This document shows positions 8,661-61,292 of a stretch of 64,000 bases of DNA, piece after piece. Each line of letters starts with the position of its first letter. The stretch's first letter is position 1. The translations under genes and the position numbers were made by a program. Source of the DNA: Escherichia coli (GTDB taxonomy: Bacteria; Pseudomonadota; Gammaproteobacteria; Enterobacterales; Enterobacteriaceae); the NCBI RefSeq assembly GCF_013315695.1, contig NZ_CP054353.1; one strand, given 5' to 3'. The notes beneath the pieces were generated by a model. The model worked only from the letters and a program-made list of their open reading frames with translations. It had not been told where the DNA came from and searched no databases.

Positions 8661-10421
8661 ATGACGCAAACATTTATCCCCGGCAAAGATGCCGCACTGG
8701 AAGATTCCATCGCTCGCTTCCAGCAAAAACTTTCAGACCTCGGCTTTCAGATTGAAGAGGCCTCCTGGCTGAATCCCGTGCCTAACGTCTGGTCTGTACA
8801 TATTCGCGACAAAGAGTGCGCACTGTGTTTTACCAACGGTAAAGGCGCAACCAAAAAAGCGGCGCTGGCTTCTGCACTCGGTGAATATTTCGAGCGTCTC
8901 TCAACCAACTACTTTTTTGCTGACTTCTGGCTGGGCGAAACCATCGCCAACGGTCCGTTCGTGCATTATCCCAACGAAAAATGGTTCCCACTGAGCGAAA
9001 ATGACGATGTGCCAGAAGGGCTGCTCGATGACCGTCTGCGCGCATTTTACGATCCGGAGAATGAACTGACCGGCAGCATGCTGATTGACCTACAATCCGG
9101 TAACGAAGATCGTGGTATTTGCGGTCTACCGTTTACGCGCCAGTCCGACAATCAGACCATTTATATTCCGATGAATATCATTGGTAACTTGTACGTTTCT
9201 AACGGTATGTCTGCTGGCAATACCCGTAACGAAGCACGCGTTCAGGGGTTGTCCGAAGTTTTCGAACGTTACGTGAAAAACCGCATTATTGCTGAAAGCA
9301 TCAGCTTGCCGGAAATCCCGGCAGACGTGCTGGCGCGTTACCCAGCGGTGGTTGAAGCCATCGAAACACTGGAAGCAGAAGGTTTCCCAATCTTTGCTTA
9401 TGATGGTTCGCTTGGCGGCCAGTATCCGGTGATTTGCGTGGTACTGTTCAATCCTGCTAACGGTACCTGCTTTGCCTCTTTCGGTGCGCATCCTGATTTT
9501 GGCGTAGCACTGGAACGTACCGTGACCGAGCTGCTGCAAGGTCGTGGCCTGAAAGATTTGGATGTGTTTACTCCGCCAACCTTCGATGATGAAGAAGTTG
9601 CTGAACATACCAACCTCGAAACGCACTTTATCGATTCCAGCGGTTTAATCTCCTGGGACCTGTTCAAGCAGGATGCCGATTATCCGTTTGTGGACTGGAA
9701 TTTCTCCGGCACTACGGAAGAAGAGTTTGCTACGCTGATGGCTATCTTCAACAACGAAGATAAAGAAGTTTATATTGCCGATTACGAGCATCTGGGCGTT
9801 TATGCTTGCCGAATTATCGTGCCTGGCATGTCCGATATTTATCCGGCTGAAGATCTGTGGCTGGCGAATAACAGTATGGGCAGCCATTTACGTGAAACGA
9901 TTCTTTCGCTACCAGGTAGCGAGTGGGAAAAGGAAGATTACCTGAACCTCATCGAGCAACTGGATGAAGAAGGTTTTGATGACTTTACCCGCGTGCGTGA
10001 ACTGTTGGGTCTGGCGACCGGGTCGGATAACAGCTGGTACACTCTGCGTATCGGAGAATTAAAAGCCATGCTGGCGCTGGCTGGTGGCGATCTGGAACAG
10101 GCTCTGGTCTGGACCGAATGGACGATGGAGTTTAACTCATCAGTATTTAGTCCGGAACGCGCCAACTATTATCGCTGCCTGCAAACGTTGTTATTACTGG
10201 CGCAGGAAGAAGATCGCCAGCCGCTGCAATATTTGAATGCGTTTGTTCGCATGTACGGCGCAGATGCCGTGGAAGCCGCCAGTGCGGCAATGAGCGGTGA
10301 ATCGGCGTTTTATGGCCTGCAACCCGTAGATAGCGATCTGCACGCATTTGCTGCACATCAATCGTTGCTGAAGGCCTACGAAAAGCTGCAGCGCGCCAAA
10401 GCGGCATTCTGGGCAAAATAA
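8661..10421 (+). CDS. ycaO: YcaO-domain protein
   Basis: 586-aa product starting MTQTFIPGKDAALEDSIARF (ORF track begins 11 codons upstream at 8628). Confidence 0.9.
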   Translation: MTQTFIPGKDAALEDSIARFQQKLSDLGFQIEEASWLNPVPNVWSVHIRDKECALCFTNGKGATKKAALASALGEYFERLSTNYFFADFWLGETIANGPFVHYPNEKWFPLSENDDVPEGLLDDRLRAFYDPENELTGSMLIDLQSGNEDRGICGLPFTRQSDNQTIYIPMNIIGNLYVSNGMSAGNTRNEARVQGLSEVFERYVKNRIIAESISLPEIPADVLARYPAVVEAIETLEAEGFPIFAYDGSLGGQYPVICVVLFNPANGTCFASFGAHPDFGVALERTVTELLQGRGLKDLDVFTPPTFDDEEVAEHTNLETHFIDSSGLISWDLFKQDADYPFVDWNFSGTTEEEFATLMAIFNNEDKEVYIADYEHLGVYACRIIVPGMSDIYPAEDLWLANNSMGSHLRETILSLPGSEWEKEDYLNLIEQLDEEGFDDFTRVRELLGLATGSDNSWYTLRIGELKAMLALAGGDLEQALVWTEWTMEFNSSVFSPERANYYRCLQTLLLLAQEEDRQPLQYLNAFVRMYGADAVEAASAAMSGESAFYGLQPVDSDLHAFAAHQSLLKAYEKLQRAKAAFWAK

Positions 10422-10428
10422 AATCAAA

Positions 10429-10447
10429 TAGCCTACGCAATGTAGGC
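10429..10447 (+). terminator. stem-loop after ycaO stop (AGCCTAC-GCAAT-GTAGGCT)
   Basis: Perfect 7-bp inverted repeat; no strong U-tract. Confidence 0.35.
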
Positions 10448-10452
10448 TTAAT

Positions 10453-10826
10453 GATTCGTCTGAGTTATATTACGGGGCGTTTTTTTAATGCCCCGCTTTA
10501 CATATATTTGCATTAATAAAATAATTGTAATTATAAAGTTAAATATCGGTAATTTGTATTTAATAAATACGATCGATATTGTTACTTTATTCGCCTGGTG
10601 CTCCCTTTTAATTAACTGTTTTAGCGGAGGATGCGGAAAAAATTCAACTCATTTGTTAATTTTTAAAATTTATTTTTATTTGGATAATCAAATATTTACT
10701 CCGTATTTGCATAAAAACCATGCGAGTTACGGGCCTATAAGCCAGGCGAGATATGATCTATATCAATTTCTCATCTATAATGCTTTGTTAGTATCTCGTC
10801 GCCGACTTAATAAAGAGAGAGTTAGT
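10453..10826 (+). promoter_or_regulatory. AT-rich focA-pflB upstream regulatory region
   Basis: About 370-bp noncoding AT-rich segment ahead of focA; known in E. coli to carry multiple promoters with FNR/ArcA/IHF control, but individual sites were not mapped here. Confidence 0.5.
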
Positions 10827-11684
10827 GTGAAAGCTGACAACCCTTTTGATCTTTTACTTCCTGCAGCAATGGCCAAAGTGGCCGAAGAGGCAGGTGTCTA
10901 TAAAGCAACGAAACATCCGCTTAAGACTTTCTATCTGGCGATTACCGCCGGTGTTTTCATCTCAATCGCATTCGTCTTCTATATCACAGCAACCACTGGC
11001 ACAGGAACAATGCCCTTCGGCATGGCAAAACTGGTTGGCGGCATTTGCTTCTCTCTGGGGCTGATTCTTTGTGTTGTCTGCGGAGCCGATCTCTTTACTT
11101 CCACAGTGTTGATTGTTGTTGCTAAGGCGAGTGGGCGCATCACCTGGGGTCAGTTGGCGAAAAACTGGCTAAATGTTTATTTTGGCAACCTAGTCGGCGC
11201 ACTGCTGTTTGTACTTTTAATGTGGCTTTCCGGCGAGTATATGACCGCAAATGGTCAATGGGGACTAAACGTCCTACAAACCGCCGACCACAAAGTGCAC
11301 CATACTTTTATTGAGGCCGTCTGTCTTGGTATCCTGGCAAACCTGATGGTATGTCTGGCAGTATGGATGAGTTATTCTGGCCGCAGCCTGATGGACAAAG
11401 CGTTCATTATGGTGCTGCCGGTCGCGATGTTTGTTGCCAGCGGTTTTGAGCACAGTATCGCAAACATGTTTATGATCCCGATGGGTATTGTAATCCGCGA
11501 CTTCGCATCTCCGGAATTCTGGACCGCTGTCGGTTCTGCACCGGAAAATTTTTCTCACCTGACCGTGATGAATTTCATCACTGATAACCTGATTCCGGTT
11601 ACGATCGGTAATATTATCGGCGGTGGTTTGTTGGTTGGGTTGACATACTGGGTCATTTACCTGCGTGAAAACGATCACCATTAA
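10827..11684 (+). CDS. focA: formate channel
   Basis: GTG start giving VKADNPFDLLLPAAMAKVAEEAG, 285 aa, multi-pass membrane protein; ORF track is extended upstream to 10488. Confidence 0.9.
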   Translation: MKADNPFDLLLPAAMAKVAEEAGVYKATKHPLKTFYLAITAGVFISIAFVFYITATTGTGTMPFGMAKLVGGICFSLGLILCVVCGADLFTSTVLIVVAKASGRITWGQLAKNWLNVYFGNLVGALLFVLLMWLSGEYMTANGQWGLNVLQTADHKVHHTFIEAVCLGILANLMVCLAVWMSYSGRSLMDKAFIMVLPVAMFVASGFEHSIANMFMIPMGIVIRDFASPEFWTAVGSAPENFSHLTVMNFITDNLIPVTIGNIIGGGLLVGLTYWVIYLRENDHH

Positions 11685-11738
11685 TGGTTGTCGAAGTACG
11701 CAGTAAATAAAAAATCCACTTAAGAAGGTAGGTGTTAC

Positions 11739-14021
11739 ATGTCCGAGCTTAATGAAAAGTTAGCCACAGCCTGGGAAGGTTTTACCAAAGGTGACTGGCA
11801 GAATGAAGTAAACGTCCGTGACTTCATTCAGAAAAACTACACTCCGTACGAGGGTGACGAGTCCTTCCTGGCTGGCGCTACTGAAGCGACCACCACCCTG
11901 TGGGACAAAGTAATGGAAGGCGTTAAACTGGAAAACCGCACTCACGCGCCAGTTGACTTTGACACCGCTGTTGCTTCCACCATCACCTCTCACGACGCTG
12001 GTTACATCAACAAGCAGCTTGAGAAAATCGTTGGTCTGCAGACTGAAGCTCCGCTGAAACGTGCTCTTATCCCGTTCGGTGGTATCAAAATGATCGAAGG
12101 TTCCTGCAAAGCGTACAACCGCGAACTGGACCCGATGATCAAAAAAATCTTCACTGAATACCGTAAAACTCACAACCAGGGCGTGTTCGACGTTTACACT
12201 CCGGACATCCTGCGTTGCCGTAAATCCGGTGTTCTGACCGGTCTGCCAGATGCTTATGGCCGTGGTCGTATCATCGGTGACTACCGTCGCGTTGCGCTGT
12301 ACGGTATCGACTACCTGATGAAAGACAAACTTGCACAGTTCACCTCTCTGCAGGCTGATCTGGAAAACGGCGTAAACCTGGAACAGACTATCCGTCTGCG
12401 CGAAGAAATCGCTGAACAGCACCGCGCTCTGGGTCAGATGAAAGAAATGGCTGCGAAATACGGCTACGACATCTCTGGTCCGGCTACCAACGCTCAGGAA
12501 GCTATCCAGTGGACTTACTTCGGCTACCTGGCTGCTGTTAAGTCTCAGAACGGTGCTGCAATGTCCTTCGGTCGTACCTCCACCTTCCTGGATGTGTACA
12601 TCGAACGTGACCTGAAAGCTGGCAAGATCACCGAACAAGAAGCGCAGGAAATGGTTGACCACCTGGTCATGAAACTGCGTATGGTTCGCTTCCTGCGTAC
12701 TCCGGAATACGATGAACTGTTCTCTGGCGACCCGATCTGGGCAACCGAATCTATCGGTGGTATGGGCCTCGACGGTCGTACCCTGGTTACCAAAAACAGC
12801 TTCCGTTTCCTGAACACCCTGTACACCATGGGTCCGTCTCCGGAACCGAACATGACCATTCTGTGGTCTGAAAAACTGCCGCTGAACTTCAAGAAATTCG
12901 CCGCTAAAGTGTCCATCGACACCTCTTCTCTGCAGTATGAGAACGATGACCTGATGCGTCCGGACTTCAACAACGATGACTACGCTATCGCTTGCTGCGT
13001 AAGCCCGATGATCGTTGGTAAACAAATGCAGTTCTTCGGTGCGCGTGCAAACCTGGCGAAAACCATGCTGTACGCAATCAACGGCGGCGTTGACGAAAAA
13101 CTGAAAATGCAGGTTGGTCCGAAGTCTGAGCCGATCAAAGGCGATCTCCTGAACTACGATGAAGTGATGGAGCGCATGGATCACTTCATGGACTGGCTGG
13201 CTAAACAGTACATCACTGCACTGAACATCATCCACTACATGCACGACAAGTACAGCTACGAAGCCTCTCTGATGGCGCTGCACGACCGTGACGTTATCCG
13301 CACCATGGCGTGTGGTATCGCTGGTCTGTCCGTTGCTGCTGACTCCCTGTCTGCAATCAAATATGCGAAAGTTAAACCGATTCGTGACGAAGACGGTCTG
13401 GCTATCGACTTCGAAATCGAAGGCGAATACCCGCAGTTTGGTAACAACGATCCGCGTGTAGATGACCTGGCTGTTGACCTGGTAGAACGTTTCATGAAGA
13501 AAATTCAGAAACTGCACACCTACCGTGACGCTATCCCGACTCAGTCTGTTCTGACCATCACTTCTAACGTTGTGTATGGTAAGAAAACTGGTAACACCCC
13601 AGACGGTCGTCGTGCTGGCGCGCCGTTCGGACCAGGTGCTAACCCGATGCACGGTCGTGACCAGAAAGGTGCAGTAGCCTCTCTGACTTCCGTTGCTAAA
13701 CTGCCGTTTGCTTACGCTAAAGATGGTATCTCCTACACCTTCTCTATCGTTCCGAACGCACTGGGTAAAGACGACGAAGTTCGTAAGACCAACCTGGCTG
13801 GTCTGATGGATGGTTACTTCCACCACGAAGCATCCATCGAAGGTGGTCAGCACCTGAACGTTAACGTGATGAACCGTGAAATGCTGCTCGACGCGATGGA
13901 AAACCCGGAAAAATATCCGCAGCTGACCATCCGTGTATCTGGCTATGCAGTACGTTTCAACTCGCTGACTAAAGAACAGCAGCAGGACGTTATTACTCGT
14001 ACCTTCACTCAATCTATGTAA
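11739..14021 (+). CDS. pflB: pyruvate formate-lyase
   Basis: 760-aa ORF starting [15 protein letters not shown], ending with the glycyl-radical region RVSGYAVRF. Confidence 0.97.
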
Positions 14022-36128: not shown

Positions 36129-36427
36129 AATGGCTCACTCAAGCTTGCTCACGATTGATTCCAGTAACAAACCGTATTGTGTAATTATTTCTATAGCAGG
36201 TCGCTATATAGGATTGTATATATCGAATAATTTGAAAATCAAAGAGATAGGTAGATTTTCACTCGAAAGTAGTATTACGTGTAAGTGAGGAGTAATTATT
36301 GTTCGGTATCAAAGGGAGACAAAAAAAGCGCCCGCAGGAGATTTAACACACCTTACTCCCCTTGATGATTTACTTATTTTTCAATGACTAAATCAAAACA
36401 AGGGGAGCAAATTAACGCAAATTACAA
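36129..36427. promoter_or_regulatory. dmsA upstream region containing the presumed prophage attachment junction
   Basis: AT-rich 300-bp spacer between dmsA start and the 3' end of the phage integrase; segment AAAAAAAGCGCCCGCAGGAGATTT at about 36321-36344 partly resembles a P2-type att core as I recall it. Confidence 0.3.
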
Positions 36428-37420
36428 CTAGTCAATGGACAGTTTATGGACACTATCAGCCAGCGGATTAAAGCTAATCGCATCCTGTAAAAAGTCCGGT
36501 GAAAAATGCGCATACGTCATCGTTTGTTGAATCGTGGCGTGCCCAAGGATTCGCTGTAACGTAACGATATTTCCGCCGTTCATCATGAAATGCGTGGCGA
36601 ACGTGTGACGCATAACGTGAGTCGCCTGACCTTTGGGTAAATCCGGTTTCACCTCCTGAAGGATATCCCGAAAACGGATGTAATCAGCCTGGTACAATAG
36701 CCCGGTTTTTCGGGTTTTTATCAACGAAAGCACCGTATCAGAAACAGGAACCGCGCGGGATTTTCCATTCTTTGTGTTAAAGAACATTACGCGGTTACCA
36801 ACGATATGCTCACCACGTAAGCCAGCTGCTTCCCCCCACCTTGCGCCAGTGGAAAGACACAGAACAGCAACACGACGCGCATCCCCCTCGAGTCGTTCAA
36901 GCAGCCGATCAATCTCATCATCTGAAAGAAAGGCCATTTCTGTATTCCTGACCTTGAGCTTACGTATTCCACGCACCGGGTTTTCGTTATGGAAAACCTC
37001 CGCATCAATCAACGCAGTAAACATTGCAGACAAGGCGCACAAATCACGATTAACACTGGAGGGCATTAATCCGGCCTGTAATTTGTCTGAACGATACCCG
37101 AGCATAAACTTTCGCGTCATCTCACTGGCGCGGGGGTCCCTCATCTCACGGTTTATTTTTTCCAGCCTGACCCTGTAAGTATCCCCGTAAGGCTGATTCC
37201 GGCCATCAAGCACCCACCAGGCATCTATCAGTTCGGATAACCGACGCTGATCAGCTGGCTTGGCCTGCCACGGTTTATCGTGGAAATTCTGCAAAACATA
37301 CCTTTCAAACTCCTGTGCCTTTGACTTCAGGGTAAAAATCTTACGGATCCGCTTTCCTTCCGTCCCTTGCGGTCTTACATCAACCTTATAACGCCCGTCT
37401 TTGAGTTGCTTAATCGACAT
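36428..37420 (-). CDS. int: P2-type tyrosine integrase
   Basis: Start MSIKQLKDGRYKVDVRPQG; C-terminal tyrosine-recombinase catalytic motifs HVMRHTFATHF and LGHATIQQTMTYAH. Confidence 0.9.
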   Translation of the reverse strand: MSIKQLKDGRYKVDVRPQGTEGKRIRKIFTLKSKAQEFERYVLQNFHDKPWQAKPADQRRLSELIDAWWVLDGRNQPYGDTYRVRLEKINREMRDPRASEMTRKFMLGYRSDKLQAGLMPSSVNRDLCALSAMFTALIDAEVFHNENPVRGIRKLKVRNTEMAFLSDDEIDRLLERLEGDARRVAVLCLSTGARWGEAAGLRGEHIVGNRVMFFNTKNGKSRAVPVSDTVLSLIKTRKTGLLYQADYIRFRDILQEVKPDLPKGQATHVMRHTFATHFMMNGGNIVTLQRILGHATIQQTMTYAHFSPDFLQDAISFNPLADSVHKLSID

Positions 37421-37489
37421 GATTAGCCCCTCCAACGGATGAATCAGCCGTACACTCTCTACGGGATGAAACCCGCTCGATGTACAGCG

Positions 37490-43164: not shown

Positions 43165-43547
43165 CAGAAACACCCCGCGTATGCAGACAATCACCAGTTG
43201 CCAGGTGATATTAATTCGCAACATTCTAACCACATCAGCACGCAACACAAAAACCGCTTGCCAGCGCTCGTCGTGTCAGGTTACATTTCCGCTGCACCTC
43301 ATAAAACGGGTGCCGGGTTTCGCAGCCTGCTGACAACCAAAGCGCACAACCGCGCCAGCGGTTTTTTTGTGCGTACTGTATTGCCACGTCTTTTTCGCGT
43401 CAGAATTATGGCGGGGCGTACGGGGCCGACTTCGGTCGGGCCGGGTTCTTTGCTAGCCGGTACTGCGAACCTCGTACGTCTCGCCACCCACAGTTTCGCA
43501 GCTCTGGATGGTGAGTTTTCACAACTTACTAGCAAAGAGGCCACACC

Positions 43548-44008: not shown

Positions 44009-44837
44009 TATGCAGACAATCACCAGTTGCCAGGTGATATTAATTCGCAACATTCTAACCACATCAGCACGCAACACAAAAACCGCTTGCCAGCGCTCGT
44101 CGTGTCGGGTTACATTTCCGCTGCACCTCATAAAACGGGTGCCGGGTTTCGCAGCCTGCCGACTAGCAAAGCGCACAACCGCGCCAGCGGTTTTTTTGTG
44201 CGTACTGTATTGCCACGTCTTTTTCGCGTCAGAATTATGGCGGGGCGTACGGGGCCGACTTCGGTCGGGCCGGGTTCTTTGCTAGCCGGTACTGCGAACC
44301 TCGTACGTCTCGCCACCCACAGTTTCGCAGCTCTGGATGGTGAGTTTTCACAACTTACTAGCAAAGAGGCCACACCATGGCAAACCGCAAGCAACAGCGC
44401 GCCCGCGCTGAGCGTCTTCACATCCGCAGCGAAATCAACCGCAGACTTTTCCGCGCAACACGCGTCGCGCAAATCATGCATATCAACATGCTGCATGAGC
44501 GCACGCACGCACTATCAAACCGTTACTGCGCTGCTGTCTTCAGCTATCTCGCCGAAGATCTGGCAGAACTGCAAAGCCTCATCAACCAGCACCGATAAAC
44601 CACATCCGGAAGCTATCCCACACCTGCACGCGGGAGGCTTCCGCACGTCTGTTACCGGAGGTTCTCATGAAGAGCGTTAAGGGACTTTCAGATATTCAGG
44701 ACTTCTTTAACTGGATGTGGGCGGTGGATCCCCTGCTGGCTTCCCGCCTGAACAACTGGCACGACTATTACCGCCGCGCCTGTAAACAGGCTGCCCGCAG
44801 CGTCACCACATACGGGGATTTCTCCTTCACCGTGGAC
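44009..44837 (+). repeat. tandem duplication, unit 2 (829 bp)
   Basis: See unit 1. Confidence 0.85.
44377..44598 (+). CDS. small basic protein (73 aa), copy 2
   Basis: Identical translation to 43548-43769. Confidence 0.45.
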   Translation: MANRKQQRARAERLHIRSEINRRLFRATRVAQIMHINMLHERTHALSNRYCAAVFSYLAEDLAELQSLINQHR

Positions 44838-52821: not shown

Positions 52822-52977
52822 GCGCCCCCCTTCATTAGCTGAAACAAAGAGTAAACGCCCCGCCCTTTACCGGATATTCGGCGCCGTTGTAGCGGTGTTC
52901 TTACAACAACCCCGCCTTGAGATGCCATCCCCTCCCCCCGCATGATGGAATACACCATTCCGGAAAGGAGATTTTTC

Positions 52978-56879: not shown

Positions 56880-57402
56880 ACGTTATACCGTTGCCGCCAT
56901 CGTGGCGCTGGGTTTTTCGCTGGCCCCCGGGGAACTGAGAACCTCACAGGAGGCACAGGAAAAAATAGCCACGTGGGAAGACTGCCGGGCCGTTCCGTAC
57001 AGGGATATCGCCGGGGTGAAAACCGTGGGCTGCGGCTCAACGGGAAACGTGCCCGACCGCCACCACACCCAACAGGAGGTTGCCGGTCGCTGGGTGAATG
57101 ATTTGCGACGGGCAGAGAACTGCATCAATCAGAACTTCAATGGCCGCGACATGCCACAGCGCCACTTCGAGGCAATGACGGATGCCGCCTTTAATCTGGG
57201 GTGCAAAGGTCTGATGTGGTTTAAGGGGCGTGACGGGAGAATGCACAGAACAACCATCTGGAAGTTCGCTCAGGGAAAGAACTGGAACGCAATGTGCGGC
57301 AGGCTGACGGATTTTGTGAACAGCGGCGGACGCTATTCACAGGGGCTGTTTAACCGACGGGACGACTTCCGGAAATGGTGTTCACAGGAGAACAAAACAT
57401 GA
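56863..57402 (+). CDS. endolysin (gpK-like lysozyme)
   Basis: 179 aa; lysozyme family context and position after the holin. Confidence 0.8.
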   Translation: MGNQVKRYTVAAIVALGFSLAPGELRTSQEAQEKIATWEDCRAVPYRDIAGVKTVGCGSTGNVPDRHHTQQEVAGRWVNDLRRAENCINQNFNGRDMPQRHFEAMTDAAFNLGCKGLMWFKGRDGRMHRTTIWKFAQGKNWNAMCGRLTDFVNSGGRYSQGLFNRRDDFRKWCSQENKT

Positions 57403-57842
57403 GAGTCACCGTCATCATTGTCTGGCTGGTTGTGACGCTTCTGTTATGTGGGCTGGTCGGCTGGGAAGCATACCGCAAGGGGCAGGAAAGTCTGGGGAGA
57501 CAACAAATGATGGATGTCATCGAGGACAACCGGGCCGCCATGCATGAAGTCCGCGAGGCATACAGCGATTTTTCGCGGGTGATTAACATCATCCGGATCC
57601 TGGACCAGCAACGCATCACCGAAGGAGAGCAACGACGTGAAGCTATGCAGAAGGCCGCACAGAATGATGCGTGTGCTGGCGCTCATCCTCCTGGCGCTGT
57701 CACTGAGCGGCTGCAACAGCACATCGCACACGTTGAAAACCAGACTCGTTTACGAGCCGGTGCCGGAAGTACTGACAAGGCAGACGCCGATCCCCTTTCT
57801 GGAGCGACCGGTGACCTGGTACCGGATAACCGAATGGAGTGA
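57396..57842 (+). CDS. i-spanin (Rz/LysB-like)
   Basis: N-terminal TM MRVTVIIVWLVVTLLLCGLVGW followed by a charged helical domain. Confidence 0.6.
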   Translation, partial: NMRVTVIIVWLVVTLLLCGLVGWEAYRKGQESLGRQQMMDVIEDNRAAMHEVREAYSDFSRVINIIRILDQQRITEGEQRREAMQKAAQNDACAGAHPPGAVTERLQQHIAHVENQTRLRAGAGSTDKADADPLSGATGDLVPDNRME

Positions 57843-57948
57843 CCAGTTACTGGCTGCGCTGGATACATGCAACACAGACAAAGCCGCAATAGCCTGGCTG
57901 GACAAGCAGAGGGCAGAACGGGCGCAAGATGCACCCAATCAGGAGTAG
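57637..57948 (+). CDS. o-spanin lipoprotein (Rz1/LysC-like), embedded/overlapping frame
   Basis: Lipobox LALSLSGC; likely real start at the internal Met near 57664. Confidence 0.6.
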   Translation: MKLCRRPHRMMRVLALILLALSLSGCNSTSHTLKTRLVYEPVPEVLTRQTPIPFLERPVTWYRITEWSDQLLAALDTCNTDKAAIAWLDKQRAERAQDAPNQE

Positions 57949-57951
57949 ACG

Positions 57952-59889
57952 ATGAGCAAAAAACATTTTGAGTTGATTACCGCCATGAGCCGTACGGAGC
58001 TGGCTGAGAAAGTTAACGAACGTCTGGCGCTGGGCTGGCAGCTTCAGGGCGACGCACAGGTTGCGTCAGAGCCGGGCGTGCCGTGGTATTTGATGCAGGC
58101 CATGACCGGTGATCAGCCCGTCACCGACGAGCCGCAAATTGCTGTGGATGACGAAGGGAACACAATCAACGAACCGGAATACTACTTCGTCATTGCTCTG
58201 GCCGGGCAATCCAACGGCATGGCGTATGGCGAAGGTCTGCCGCTGCCTGAGACATACGATCGCCCCGATCAGCGCATTAAGCAACTGGCACGCCGCAGTA
58301 CTGTCACGCCGGGTGGTGCGTCCTGTAATTACAACGACATTATTCCTGCGGACCACTGCCTGCATGATGTTCAGGATTTGAGTAAGTTTTCACACCCGAA
58401 AGCCAGCGCAGCTCAGTATGGATGCGTGGGGCAGGGATTACATATCGCGAAGAAATTGTTGCCGTTTATTCCGGCGAATGCGGGCATTCTTCTGGTTCCG
58501 TGCTGTCGTGGTGGATCTGCGTTTACTACAGGGGGTGATGGCGCTTTCAGTGAAACAACCGGTGCAACAGAAGCATCGTCTCGTTGGGGGGTCGATAAAC
58601 CGTTATACAAGGATCTACTCACCCGAACAAAAGCCGCACTGAAAACCAACCCTAAAAACATTCTGCTTGCAGTGGTCTGGATGCAGGGCGAGTTTGACTT
58701 AAAACAAACAACGGCATATTCCAACCAGCCAGCGGCGTTTGATGCCATGGTGGCAAAATACCGCTCCGATCTGGCGGGCGTATCAGGTCAGTGCGTTGGT
58801 GGCTCTTCATCATCAGTACCCTGGATTTGTGGTGATACAACTTATTACTGGAAAGAGACATATCCAACCGAGTACGGTGTTGTCTATGGCGCATACAAAA
58901 ACAAGCAGGCTAAAAACATCTTCTTTGTGCCGTTTATGACGGATGAAAACGGTCAGAATGTTGGCACCAACGAGCCAGATGAAGATCCTGATATCACTGA
59001 AATCGACTATTACGGTTCTGGATGGCGCAAAGATAAAACCACATGGACAACGGCAGATCGTAAAACTCACTTTGGCTCATGGGCACGTCGGGGAATTATT
59101 TCAGATCGTCTTGCTACAGCAATAATTGAGCATGCAGGTAAAACGGAAGCACTTGTTTATGGCAGGGTAACGCTCAGTAAAGAGGAAGAGCGCCCGGAAG
59201 AGGAAGATGAACCCATTGTAAAACCCACAGCTGAACAGTCAGTTATACTTTACGACGCTAAAAATGCCTCAGATACCAATTTACAGGCGCTGAACTGGGA
59301 GTTGAAGGATGTCACCCCCTCTCTGATTCAGGAGGGAAGTAATAAGGCGTTGCGTCTTGAGAAAAGCAACAGTGCGAAACCATGGTCATTACTTCATAGT
59401 ATTGCAGCCGAAAAATCAGGACAACTTCTGGAAAAAGGCGGAGAAATTTCCGTTCGCTTCAAAATACCTGAAAACACCTCTCTTGATACAGGAAAAAATA
59501 AGTATGTGTTAGGGCTGTACTGGAAAATAGCGGGATGGCCAGGTGATGGCGGAGAAGGCTATCTGAGTTCTTTTCTTGTTCAGACAGATAAAGCAAACCT
59601 GGATGTTGTTTACCATTACAACAGTAATCAACTGAAAGATATTGGTACATTTGATGAGTTTGATCATGACTGGCATACGCTCGCATTCAGGTTTGAAGGC
59701 GGTAACAGCCTCAGCGTTACACCGGTGCTCGATGGTAAAGATGGTCAGGCGTTTGATCTTGTTAAGTGGACTAATTCAGCTAATGAGGCCAATAAGTTTA
59801 TTTTGACCGATATTACTGGCACAGCTGAAACGTATCCTGTCCTTATTGAGACAATCGAAGTTAAAGCAAACCAGGCAGCAGCGAAATAA
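57952..59889 (+). CDS. NanS-p-like SGNH/sialate O-acetylesterase-family protein (DUF1737-type N-terminus + esterase + C-terminal domain)
   Basis: 645 aa; N-terminus MSKKHFELITAMSRTELAEKVNERLALGWQLQGDAQV; esterase motif VIALAGQSNGMAYGE (GQSN). Confidence 0.75.
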   Translation: MSKKHFELITAMSRTELAEKVNERLALGWQLQGDAQVASEPGVPWYLMQAMTGDQPVTDEPQIAVDDEGNTINEPEYYFVIALAGQSNGMAYGEGLPLPETYDRPDQRIKQLARRSTVTPGGASCNYNDIIPADHCLHDVQDLSKFSHPKASAAQYGCVGQGLHIAKKLLPFIPANAGILLVPCCRGGSAFTTGGDGAFSETTGATEASSRWGVDKPLYKDLLTRTKAALKTNPKNILLAVVWMQGEFDLKQTTAYSNQPAAFDAMVAKYRSDLAGVSGQCVGGSSSSVPWICGDTTYYWKETYPTEYGVVYGAYKNKQAKNIFFVPFMTDENGQNVGTNEPDEDPDITEIDYYGSGWRKDKTTWTTADRKTHFGSWARRGIISDRLATAIIEHAGKTEALVYGRVTLSKEEERPEEEDEPIVKPTAEQSVILYDAKNASDTNLQALNWELKDVTPSLIQEGSNKALRLEKSNSAKPWSLLHSIAAEKSGQLLEKGGEISVRFKIPENTSLDTGKNKYVLGLYWKIAGWPGDGGEGYLSSFLVQTDKANLDVVYHYNSNQLKDIGTFDEFDHDWHTLAFRFEGGNSLSVTPVLDGKDGQAFDLVKWTNSANEANKFILTDITGTAETYPVLIETIEVKANQAAAK

Positions 59890-59896
59890 TAAAAAA

Positions 59897-59919
59897 CCCC
59901 CTCCGGCATTCGGAGGGGG
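59897..59919 (+). terminator. hairpin terminator immediately after the esterase gene
   Basis: CCCCCTCCG-GCATT-CGGAGGGGG directly after the stop codon. Confidence 0.55.
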
Positions 59920-60189
59920 AGAGAAACTAACCATTAAAAACGAATATCTATAAGCATCTCAATTCTGGCGTTTTACACCATCACACGCAATGCAAAGGAG
60001 CAATGTATGAATTTATTTCAACAGTCCATGTTGTATTTCAGTGCTGCAGTATGCGTCATATGGGTGTGATAAGGCAGACAGAACTTCCGGAACAAAAAAC
60101 AAATAAGGCAGCAGTAAGAAAAGCAGCTGGCGGTACAACTAACCGATCCTGAAATAGCCTGCCATACACAACAAACAGACGGTGTTTTT

Positions 60190-60660
60190 ATGCTGAAAAT
60201 GAACTCATTACGCGAAGCACTGACCAGCAACTGCCGGTGGTGCAAAGCCAATCCGGAAAAATTCACGGTATTCACTGAGTCCGGAGGCATTGAGACCACC
60301 GCAGAAAGACCGTCATTTCTGTATCGCTACAACCTGGTCGTTTTCATCATGGATTTCACGGAAAGCATCGACAACATCATGCTGCCGGTAATGGCGTGGC
60401 TGTACCGCAACCAGCCTGACCTGCTGCTTAATCCGGAGAAGAACAAAAGCATTAAATTTTCGACGGCCATTAACGACGATGACAGCGCCGATATCCTGCT
60501 GGAAATCCCGGTATGGGAACGCGTGATTGTACGCCGCAACGATGACGGCACGGTAACGGCAGAGCATATCGGTGAGCCACCGATAAGCCGGGCACTGGAA
60601 GCATGGCGAGTGGTCTTTGAAGACATGACATGGAAAACCGCAGAAGAGGCCGGGGCATGA
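60190..60660 (+). CDS. P2 gpR-like tail completion protein
   Basis: 156 aa; synteny R-S-V-W-J-I. Confidence 0.8.
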   Translation: MLKMNSLREALTSNCRWCKANPEKFTVFTESGGIETTAERPSFLYRYNLVVFIMDFTESIDNIMLPVMAWLYRNQPDLLLNPEKNKSIKFSTAINDDDSADILLEIPVWERVIVRRNDDGTVTAEHIGEPPISRALEAWRVVFEDMTWKTAEEAGA

Positions 60661-61292
60661 GAGACGCTCACGAACTGGATGCCATCTTTCAGGATATTCT
60701 TTCCGGCCTGTCGGCTGCTGGCATTCAGCGCACAGCAATGAACGTGGGTAAGATTATCCGGCAGCAACAGGCCAGGCGCATCAGAAACCAGGTATCCCCG
60801 GAAGGCCAGCCCTGGGAGAAACGAAAACGCCGCATAATGCGTATACAAAAAGGCGTGAAGTTTATCTGGAAAGACGGACAGGTGAGAAACCTGAAAAACT
60901 GGAGCACATCCCGGGGACGGTTCGGGCAGAAAATTACCGGCTACGATACAGACACCGGGGGTATCCGGACGTTTTACAAAGCGGATATCGAAGATTACCT
61001 GGAAATTAACACTCTGCGTGTTGGCGCGAAAACAACTCGCCCTTCCCCCATGTTTGAAAAGCTGAGAACGCCGCGCTTCATGAAAATAACCCCGGCTCCT
61101 GACGGCGTAAGCGTTGGGTTTCAGGGGCGGGCCGCGCGTATTGCCAGGGTACATCAGTTCGGAGAAGTGAGCCTGGTATCACCCGGGAACGCCACGAAAT
61201 ACCCCGTGCGCGAGCTGCTGGGCCTGAACGGGAAAGACAAACAGCAAATCACAGAAACCGTGATAGCCGGACTGGGGAAAGCGACGAAATGA
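60657..61292 (+). CDS. P2 gpS-like tail completion protein
   Basis: Start MRDAHELD overlaps the R stop (ATGA). Confidence 0.8.
   Translation: MRDAHELDAIFQDILSGLSAAGIQRTAMNVGKIIRQQQARRIRNQVSPEGQPWEKRKRRIMRIQKGVKFIWKDGQVRNLKNWSTSRGRFGQKITGYDTDTGGIRTFYKADIEDYLEINTLRVGAKTTRPSPMFEKLRTPRFMKITPAPDGVSVGFQGRAARIARVHQFGEVSLVSPGNATKYPVRELLGLNGKDKQQITETVIAGLGKATK

Follow-up and report, generated by a model that had tools for sequence, protein, structure and literature searches.

A stretch of 64,000 nucleotides of Escherichia coli DNA (NCBI RefSeq assembly GCF_013315695.1, contig NZ_CP054353.1), referred to here as the window, carries on its plus strand a gene for a NanS-p-family sialate O-acetylesterase, inserted between the lysis genes and the tail genes R and S of a P2-like prophage. 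NanS-p proteins have so far been discussed almost entirely as accessories that pathogenic E. coli carry on Shiga-toxin (Stx) prophages and on other lambdoid prophages. The open reading frame (ORF) is real and belongs to this family, and the gene probably encodes an intact sialate 9-O-acetylesterase that is now embedded as a late gene in the operon of a P2-like (Peduoviridae) E. coli prophage. The family is known and is abundant in databases under uninformative names; the P2-like phage context is new. The gene and the modules that it encodes are as follows:

57952..59889, plus strand: NanS-p-family sialate O-acetylesterase gene, 645 aa, ATG start (ORF list; domain and structure matches)
57952..58116, plus strand: N-terminal DUF1737 domain, aa 1–55, a Peduoviridae-specific subtype with the conserved loop/strand EPGVPWYLMQAM (Pfam; AlphaFold2)
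58117..58170, plus strand: acidic disordered linker, aa 56–73 (low model confidence)
58171..59139, plus strand: NanS-type SGNH (type II) catalytic domain, aa 74–396 (match to PDB 3pt5; residue mapping; Foldseek)
59236..59886, plus strand: C-terminal lectin-like jelly-roll domain (DUF6645), aa 429–645 (match to PDB 6yp6; Pfam; Foldseek)

Family membership, catalytic residues and domain structure

Pfam profiles place DUF1737 at residues 3–50 (E = 7.9e-6), SASA at residues 133–275 (E = 1e-9), and DUF6645 at residues 493–604 (E = 7.6e-27), and PHROG 143 matches the protein over its full length (E = 1e-287). Among known structures, E. coli NanS (YjhS; PDB 3pt5) matches residues 69–393 (E = 1e-116), and the phi24B NanS-p C-terminal domain (PDB 6yp6) matches residues 440–640 (E = 3e-38). 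An earlier reading of the letters, made without database searches (the sequence-only reading), had described a 645-residue protein with a DUF1737-like N-terminus, a GQSN motif and a NanS-p-type domain arrangement, and the profile and structure matches bear out this description. Searches with tblastn recovered full-length homologues in 348 phage records, mostly those of Stx-converting phages, at ~53% identity, and the best full-length phage homologue is that of PhiR12_3, at 61.5% identity. NCBIfam gave no match for the esterase; PADLOC gave none either, which leaves a role as a defence system unsupported.

The SGNH catalytic residues, which the earlier assignment presupposed, are present on alignment. 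The GQSN sequence of block I occupies residues 85–88, in which Ser87 aligns with Ser19 of NanS and Gln86 with Gln18, while His373, within the motif RKTH, aligns with His301. In NanS, Ser19 and His301 operate without an aspartate, and Gln18 lies in the oxyanion hole (PMC9063846); by analogy, the protein encoded here would use a Ser87–His373 dyad with Gln86 in the oxyanion hole. All three residues are invariant in 15 diverse alleles. In NanS-p enzymes a Gly completes the oxyanion hole beside this Gln, and several glycines are likewise invariant.

The AlphaFold2 model is of moderate quality, with a mean predicted local distance difference test score (pLDDT) of 69.7 from a shallow alignment, and consists of three folded units with disordered linkers at residues 55–72, where pLDDT falls below 50, and at residues 399–428. 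Foldseek aligns the model with 3pt5 at a TM-score of 0.80 and with 6yp6 at a TM-score of 0.83, and the next matches are sialic-acid- and ganglioside-binding lectin domains, among them the sialic-acid-binding domain of Vibrio cholerae sialidase with a TM-score of ~0.7. Judged from these matches and from the model, the lectin-like jelly-roll probably binds sialoglycans.

Two groups of relatives are informative. The chromosomal NanS (YjhS, 3pt5) has a homologous catalytic domain (~60% identity over 325 residues), but it belongs to the nan regulon and consists of one domain, whereas the protein described here is phage-encoded and adds the DUF1737 and lectin-like domains. The NanS-p proteins of Stx and other lambdoid phages (933W L0105/z1466; phi24B vb_24B_21, that is, gp84) share the DUF1737 – SASA/NanS – DUF6645 layout at a similar length, with 53–61% identity over the full length. 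They also share the GQSN and RxxH blocks, the A-run and hairpin behind the stop codon, the DUF1378 gene downstream, and the location in a prophage late region adjoining the lysis cassette. In contrast to these lambdoid systems, the host phage is a P2-like myovirus of the Peduoviridae, and the gene lies between the lysis genes and R/S, not in the interval from stx/Q to the holin gene. A P2-type late promoter would serve it in place of the Q antitermination used by lambdoid nanS-p, neither STnc100 nor AsxR, the RNAs flanking nanS-p in Stx phages, is present here according to Rfam, and the DUF1378 gene has decayed.

Position in the late operon, the hairpin and transcription signals

The features that bear on how the gene is embedded in the operon and transcribed are the following:

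52888..52905, plus strand: TGT-N12-ACA motif upstream of the scaffold gene O (sole exact intergenic match in the late region)
57637..57948, plus strand: lysC, Rz1-like lipoprotein spanin, last lysis gene (ORF list; sequence; RefSeq annotation)
59891..59919, minus strand: A6 run (59891–59896) and 9-bp GC-rich hairpin (59897–59919) (terminator scan; folding)
60007..60143, plus strand: decayed DUF1378 gene (alignment to the intact DUF1378 of loci L002 and L011)
60190..60660, plus strand: R, tail terminator (phrog_65, E = 4e-54)
60657..61292, plus strand: S, tail completion protein (ORF list; RefSeq annotation; PHROG)

The esterase ATG lies 3 nt past the lysC stop codon TAG (57946–57948), and its Shine–Dalgarno sequence AGGAG (57941–57945) lies inside the 3' end of lysC. 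Across this region the sequence shares 99.9% identity with the chromosome of E. coli MSB1_4I, a strain isolated from a human rectal swab, in which RefSeq labels the gene only as a "DUF6645 domain-containing protein" within a P2-family prophage. This prophage adjoins dmsA, and its RefSeq order runs portal, terminase, GPO, P2-family capsid, gpM, gpL, X, holin, lysozyme, lysB, lysC, esterase, R, S, V, W, J, and I. Megablast returned no close DNA relative among sequenced phages. In the related phage P88, whose R protein is 55% identical, only ~18 nt separate the lysC stop codon from the R start, and P88 therefore represents the empty site; together with the RefSeq and PHROG assignments, it supports the earlier proposal that the gene is an insertion between the lysis genes and R/S.

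The sequence-only reading also noted a GC-rich hairpin after the stop codon, and the hairpin is real: its 9-bp stem contains 8 G–C pairs, its folding energy is −20.3 kcal/mol (z = −4.1), and 0 of 200 shuffled sequences folded equally well. The reading went further and took the hairpin for the esterase's own terminator, which would separate R and S from the upstream late transcript. On the plus strand, however, the A6 run precedes the stem, AGAGAAA follows it, and there is no U-tract; the terminator scan calls the hairpin a minus-strand terminator, since on that strand a T6 run follows the stem. An A-run and a GC hairpin lacking a T-run are likewise found directly 3' of the nanS-p stop codon in the lambdoid phage PhiR12_3, in the Stx phage phi419, and in the P2-like loci L011 and L042, and in all of these DUF1378 lies downstream of nanS-p and the hairpin. 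The positions are ~6985–7010 in L003, ~5940–5975 in L004, ~6980–7010 in L011, and ~11950–11985 in L042; the stems differ between these unrelated alleles and the architecture is alike. In L002, the A-run and hairpin come after DUF1378. Because late transcription in lambdoid phages must pass the hairpin to reach the lysis and head genes, it would not be a plus-strand terminator there. In the window, S overlaps V (V start 61289; overlap 61289–61292), which leaves no intergenic room for a separate V promoter, so that, if a plus-strand terminator worked at 59919, every tail and baseplate gene would lose its transcript. By its sequence, the hairpin is best regarded as cassette baggage oriented against the opposite strand and not as the terminator of the esterase gene, and the case cautions that a GC hairpin past a stop codon need not be that gene's terminator. 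No minus-strand promoter that could partner the reverse hairpin was found in the window or in phi419.

The 270-bp spacer between the hairpin and R is, on the evidence of alignment, a decayed DUF1378 gene and not regulatory DNA. It retains a 20-codon ORF (60007–60069) with a strong Shine–Dalgarno sequence AAGGAG (59995–60000), followed by a homologous, untranslatable remainder, where the sister prophages L002 and L011 have an intact DUF1378 of 54–55 aa; in lambdoid, Mu-like, and other P2-like prophages, too, DUF1378 comes after nanS-p. No known small RNA was found in the spacer or the hairpin, the nearest Rfam result being a sub-threshold anti-hemB match (18.5 bits against a gathering score of 49.5).

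A consensus scan of 57000–61000 found no sigma-70-like promoter on the plus strand. The motif TGT-N12-ACA is an element of P2 late promoters, and between 59890 and 60200 only one-mismatch matches to it precede R, one of which (60160–60177) ends 13 nt before the R start codon; no copy precedes V. The exact match at 52888–52905, upstream of O, is accompanied by a weak −35/−10 just downstream, and on sequence grounds it is likely a P2-type late promoter element for the whole O-to-tail operon, including the esterase. Unlike in P2, the genes from O through the baseplate may form one unit read from a single late promoter.

The claim that the insert separates R and S from the late transcript lacks support, as does the terminator, in view of the lack of a promoter motif in 59920–60189, the overlap of S with V, and P88-like prophages in which R follows the esterase stop codon by 23 nt with no hairpin. 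The same evidence bears on whether the gene is a moron. Classical morons are independent promoter–gene–terminator units, such as bor and lom of lambda, and like them the gene is absent from a close relative (P88), differs in base composition, and plausibly benefits the host. In the strict version of this idea, the gene would be autonomous, with its own terminator and with expression that benefits the lysogen independently of the phage cycle, and R and S would need a new promoter in 59920–60189. Such a unit would account for the GC-rich hairpin right past the stop codon, the foreign base composition in the 3' two-thirds of the gene, and the 270-bp spacer before R, but the hairpin reads as a terminator on the wrong strand, the spacer is the remains of DUF1378, neither the DNA upstream of the gene nor the spacer contains a promoter-like site, and P88-like prophages carry the gene with neither spacer nor hairpin. 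In Stx phages, moreover, nanS-p, which encodes active esterases, is induced together with the late genes (PMC8065619, PMC10462455). An autonomous transcription unit was rejected on the grounds that the scans found no plus-strand promoter and called the hairpin on the minus strand, and the autonomous-moron explanation as a whole is very unlikely. Of the label given earlier, the absence from P88 and the deviant GC content stand, while the promoter, the coding-strand terminator and the independence implied by it do not, the start codon being coupled to lysC.

The explanation preferred here is an esterase that has no transcription signals of its own. It would be transcribed on induction, as part of a long late operon read from the O promoter, and translated from the Shine–Dalgarno sequence inside the lysC end, and transcription would continue past it to R, S, and the baseplate genes. 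The product would consist of three modules on disordered linkers, namely a Peduoviridae-specific DUF1737 domain, a NanS-type SGNH esterase, and a lectin-like jelly-roll. It has no signal peptide and would therefore be released when the phage lyses the cell, perhaps bound to virions. Characterised NanS-p homologues act on free 5-N-acetyl-9-O-acetylneuraminic acid (Neu5,9Ac2) and on mucin glycans (PMC8065619), and by analogy the released enzyme would strip O-acetyl groups from Neu5,9Ac2 on mucin glycans, with the lectin-like domain targeting it to sialoglycans. De-O-acetylation would leave the sialic acid open to sialidases and to surviving kin lysogens, and the enzyme may also help the phage in mucus.

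A different use, raised as a possibility for NanS-p in a review (PMC8065619), is as an infection aid: the esterase would deacetylate bacterial glycans, such as the O-acetylated K1 polysialic acid capsule or the O-antigen, and thereby expose the receptor of the P2-like phage. The resemblance of the C-terminal domain to sialic-acid-binding lectin domains and its hypervariability (28–55% identity), as expected of a specificity module, are consistent with this use; however, there is no sign of tail association, the gene precedes the tail-completion genes but its N-domain is of the capsid type, and the substrates of the characterised homologues are those named above. This alternative is highly improbable.

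Mosaic structure and a possible capsid-anchor role

The three modules have different histories of identity. The N-domain (aa 1–55) is 49–97% identical among P2-like alleles and 22–33% identical to lambdoid alleles, whereas the catalytic domain of the window allele is 66% identical to P2-like alleles and 74–84% identical to lambdoid ones, the value of 84% being that of PhiR12_3. The C-domain is 28–55% identical in all comparisons, P2-like and lambdoid, and it is the most variable part; in DNA, the catalytic domain is the only part recognisably shared with lambdoid alleles. A single backbone, with capsid proteins 97–98% identical, carries three esterase alleles. Between the window and the sister prophage L011, for example, the major capsid proteins are 98% identical and the N-domain plus linker 96–97% identical, while the esterase bodies are only ~50% identical. 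BLASTN homology to lambdoid nanS-p starts at 58171, in the first codons of the catalytic domain, and sliding identity and BLASTN place the point at which backbone identity with a sister prophage resumes at 60179–60182, just upstream of the R start. The GC content of the N-domain, 0.564, is close to the 0.565 of the backbone; it then falls to 0.50 for the catalytic domain and to 0.43 for the C-domain. Judged by alignment, the window allele has its catalytic domain in common with lambdoid alleles, and its 3' hairpin and decayed DUF1378 correspond to the arrangement of the lambdoid cassette. The body of the window allele is rare, with 69% protein identity to the nearest other body, and its homologues are all from E. 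coli or Shigella. A recent transfer of the body from a sampled lambdoid phage was considered and rejected, the nearest being 69% identical in protein and ~78–81% in DNA.

By its substitution patterns, the N-domain is under purifying selection. The proportion of nonsynonymous differences (pN) is 0.18–0.30 with synonymous sites saturated, and the ratio of nonsynonymous to synonymous substitution rates (dN/dS) is 0.06 against L011; across alleles, dN/dS is ~0.1 for the N-domain and ~0.05–0.13 for the catalytic domain.

A possible role for the N-domain comes from phi24B, in which NanS-p (gp84) has been described as a capsid-decorating protein (preprint 10.64898/2026.04.10.717836). Its DUF1737 domain, folded as one helix and three antiparallel strands, anchors the protein to the capsid as a hexamer in the hexon pore via a loop with Tyr42, and the enzyme domains are later cleaved (10.64898/2026.04.10.717836). 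By extension, the esterase encoded in the window may be virion-borne, with DUF1737 docking it onto the P2-type capsid, so that the gene would be a structural accessory (decoration) gene with exchangeable catalytic and lectin modules. This reading overlaps the preferred explanation and adds one claim to it; by analogy it is plausible, and it is held tentatively, as a possibility. The protein, with a small N-terminal domain, flexible linkers, and glycan-directed domains, resembles capsid decoration proteins whose glycan-binding domains face outward (T4 Hoc; phi24B gp84), and its gene lies among late structural genes. The AlphaFold2 model of the N-domain (pLDDT 81–89) has strands at residues 4–11, 30–40, and 43–54 and a helix at residues 14–26, a beta–alpha–beta–beta order that gives a gp84-like predicted fold within the same Pfam family, and a conserved EPGxPWY motif lies at the beta2–beta3 turn, the equivalent loop. 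The structure of the phi24B N-domain itself was not present in the PDB copy searched.

The sequence of the anchor loop differs, however. Tyr42 is not kept, being replaced by Val43 here and by Val or Thr in other P2-type alleles, and the SSP motifs, which the preprint suggested as gp84 cleavage sites, are absent. Binding in phi24B is, furthermore, confined to the hexons at the flat facet centres of a T=9 shell, and heads of the P2 type are T=7. The distribution of N-domains can be read in both directions. The P2-type N-domain is a distinct subtype restricted to P2-like contexts (33 of 33 loci in IMG/VR, three phage records, and L042), the Mu-like version of the esterase has a different, non-DUF1737 N-domain, and the comparison with L011 and the constraint on the N-domain indicate that this domain is kept while the body is swapped, as an anchor fitted to its capsid would be. 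On the other hand, the same lambdoid N-domain type occurs with two head modules, those of BP-4795 and of the lambda type, and strict co-variation of N-domain type with head type was rejected as a general rule. Passive retention would also suffice, because recombination with lambdoid alleles can start only where DNA homology starts, which is at 58171. The clean module boundaries nevertheless offer an experimental handle on the claim that DUF1737 is a capsid anchor.

A broader and more speculative proposal, which we hold to be rather doubtful, would make DUF1737 a capsid-anchor family, of which the version described here is adapted to the T=7 heads of the P2 type. In commensal and extraintestinal pathogenic E. 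coli, virions of the Peduoviridae would then carry the esterase on their capsids, and lambdoid, P2-like, and Mu-like prophages would exchange the catalytic domain, together with the 3' cassette, in the manner of tail-fibre tips, with each phage type keeping its own anchor.

Distribution in other prophages and further features of the window

The esterase occupies the slot in 16 of 16 complete E. coli genomes with this backbone. A P88-like junction (lysB/lysC plus esterase), counted as present at ≥80% coverage, occurs in 375 of 5426 complete E. coli genomes, and the P2-like version is carried by at least 391 of the 5426, including human gut and sequence type 131 (ST131) isolates, under DUF-only annotation. 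Three Peduoviridae phage records contain the esterase, and all 33 IMG/VR loci with a P2-type N-domain have a P2-like context: a P2-type capsid gene lies ~4 kb upstream in 29 and R downstream in 21, the rest running off contig ends. A third P2-like backbone, L042, also carries the esterase with a P2-type N-domain. With the 60-aa N-domain as query, a word-index protein search recovered just one truncated protein and gave no useful information. In the literature searched, NanS-p is placed only in Stx and non-Stx lambdoid prophages and its P2-like context is undescribed, in agreement with the earlier remark that a P2-type late operon is a different setting for this enzyme. As the enzyme is found in P2-like and also in Mu-like prophages, phage-borne sialic-acid de-O-acetylation would be a general trait of temperate gut E. 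coli phages and not a speciality of enterohaemorrhagic E. coli.

The esterases of P88-like (Xuanwuvirus) phages and prophages (vB_EcoM-705R2, Entero_P88(23), E. coli 4/1-1) occupy the same lysC – esterase – R slot with the same architecture, have a P2-type N-domain that is 64% identical, and are annotated only as DUF6645/DUF1737 proteins. They differ in their major capsid protein (62% identical), in their length of 625–627 aa, and in an esterase body that is ~50% identical overall and 66% identical in the catalytic domain; in these prophages the esterase start overlaps lysC and DUF1378 is lacking. Some P88-like prophages (L019; L020, 7182–8042; L021, 5019–5879; L041) contain shortened alleles, with lengths of 218, 273, and 286 aa. 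The 286-aa allele joins, in frame, the N-domain and the initial third of the catalytic domain to the C-domain's final 100 aa; the catalytic histidine is missing from it.

These alleles raise the question of whether the gene is a functionless passenger heading for decay, with its ORF intact by chance and no role for the phage or the host. The truncation of the adjoining DUF1378 and a pseudogenised gpM in one P88-like prophage point the same way, whereas the low dN/dS of both the catalytic domain and the N-domain, the invariance of the catalytic residues, the full-length gene in every genome with the window's backbone, and the 375 P88-like genomes with the lysC–esterase junction argue for a gene that is maintained. 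The passenger explanation is scarcely credible.

Several points nevertheless weigh against an active, promoter-less late-operon esterase of the kind preferred here. The truncated and internally deleted alleles imply that at least some lysogens can do without the gene. The scans for promoters and terminators rely solely on consensus sequences, and RNA polymerase on the plus strand could still pause, or be stopped in part, at a GC stem of 9 bp. In NanS and NanS-p, the last SGNH block with the catalytic histidine reads RSSH or RASH (PMC10462455), and RKTH stands in its place in block IV here, a variant that is also found in PhiR12_3 and other alleles. The C-domain keeps two of the four aromatic residues proposed to bind sugar in the phi24B C-domain (Y518 and Y523), the remaining two positions being Leu at 542 and Asn at 611. 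Finally, the substrate could differ, because the nearest body allele is only 69% identical.

The esterase is also found outside the lambdoid and P2-like phages. The Mu-like prophage L043 encodes a 693-aa NanS-p-type esterase (10001–12082) between a gin-like invertase and com/mom, followed by DUF1378 and DUF826, and its N-terminal domain of ~125 aa has only a weak match, to phrog_4772. In L046 (10001–14029), two convergent full-length esterase genes, which encode 659 and 629 aa and have a DUF1737 domain of a third subtype, adjoin an integrase, apparently in a prophage remnant.

Two further features of the prophage lie far from the esterase. A match to the small RNA STnc130 (126 bits) at 36219–36353, beside dmsA and the prophage integrase (36428–37435, minus strand), probably marks the attachment-site region. 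The early region contains a 300-nt direct repeat (43180–43479 and 44009–44308; 99% identical, 829 nt apart). Each copy of the repeat lies within an ORF with PHROG matches to transcriptional regulators or repressors and contains, above the Rfam gathering scores, both the Hfq-binding RNA isrK and a C4 antisense RNA, the P1/P7-type immunity RNA.

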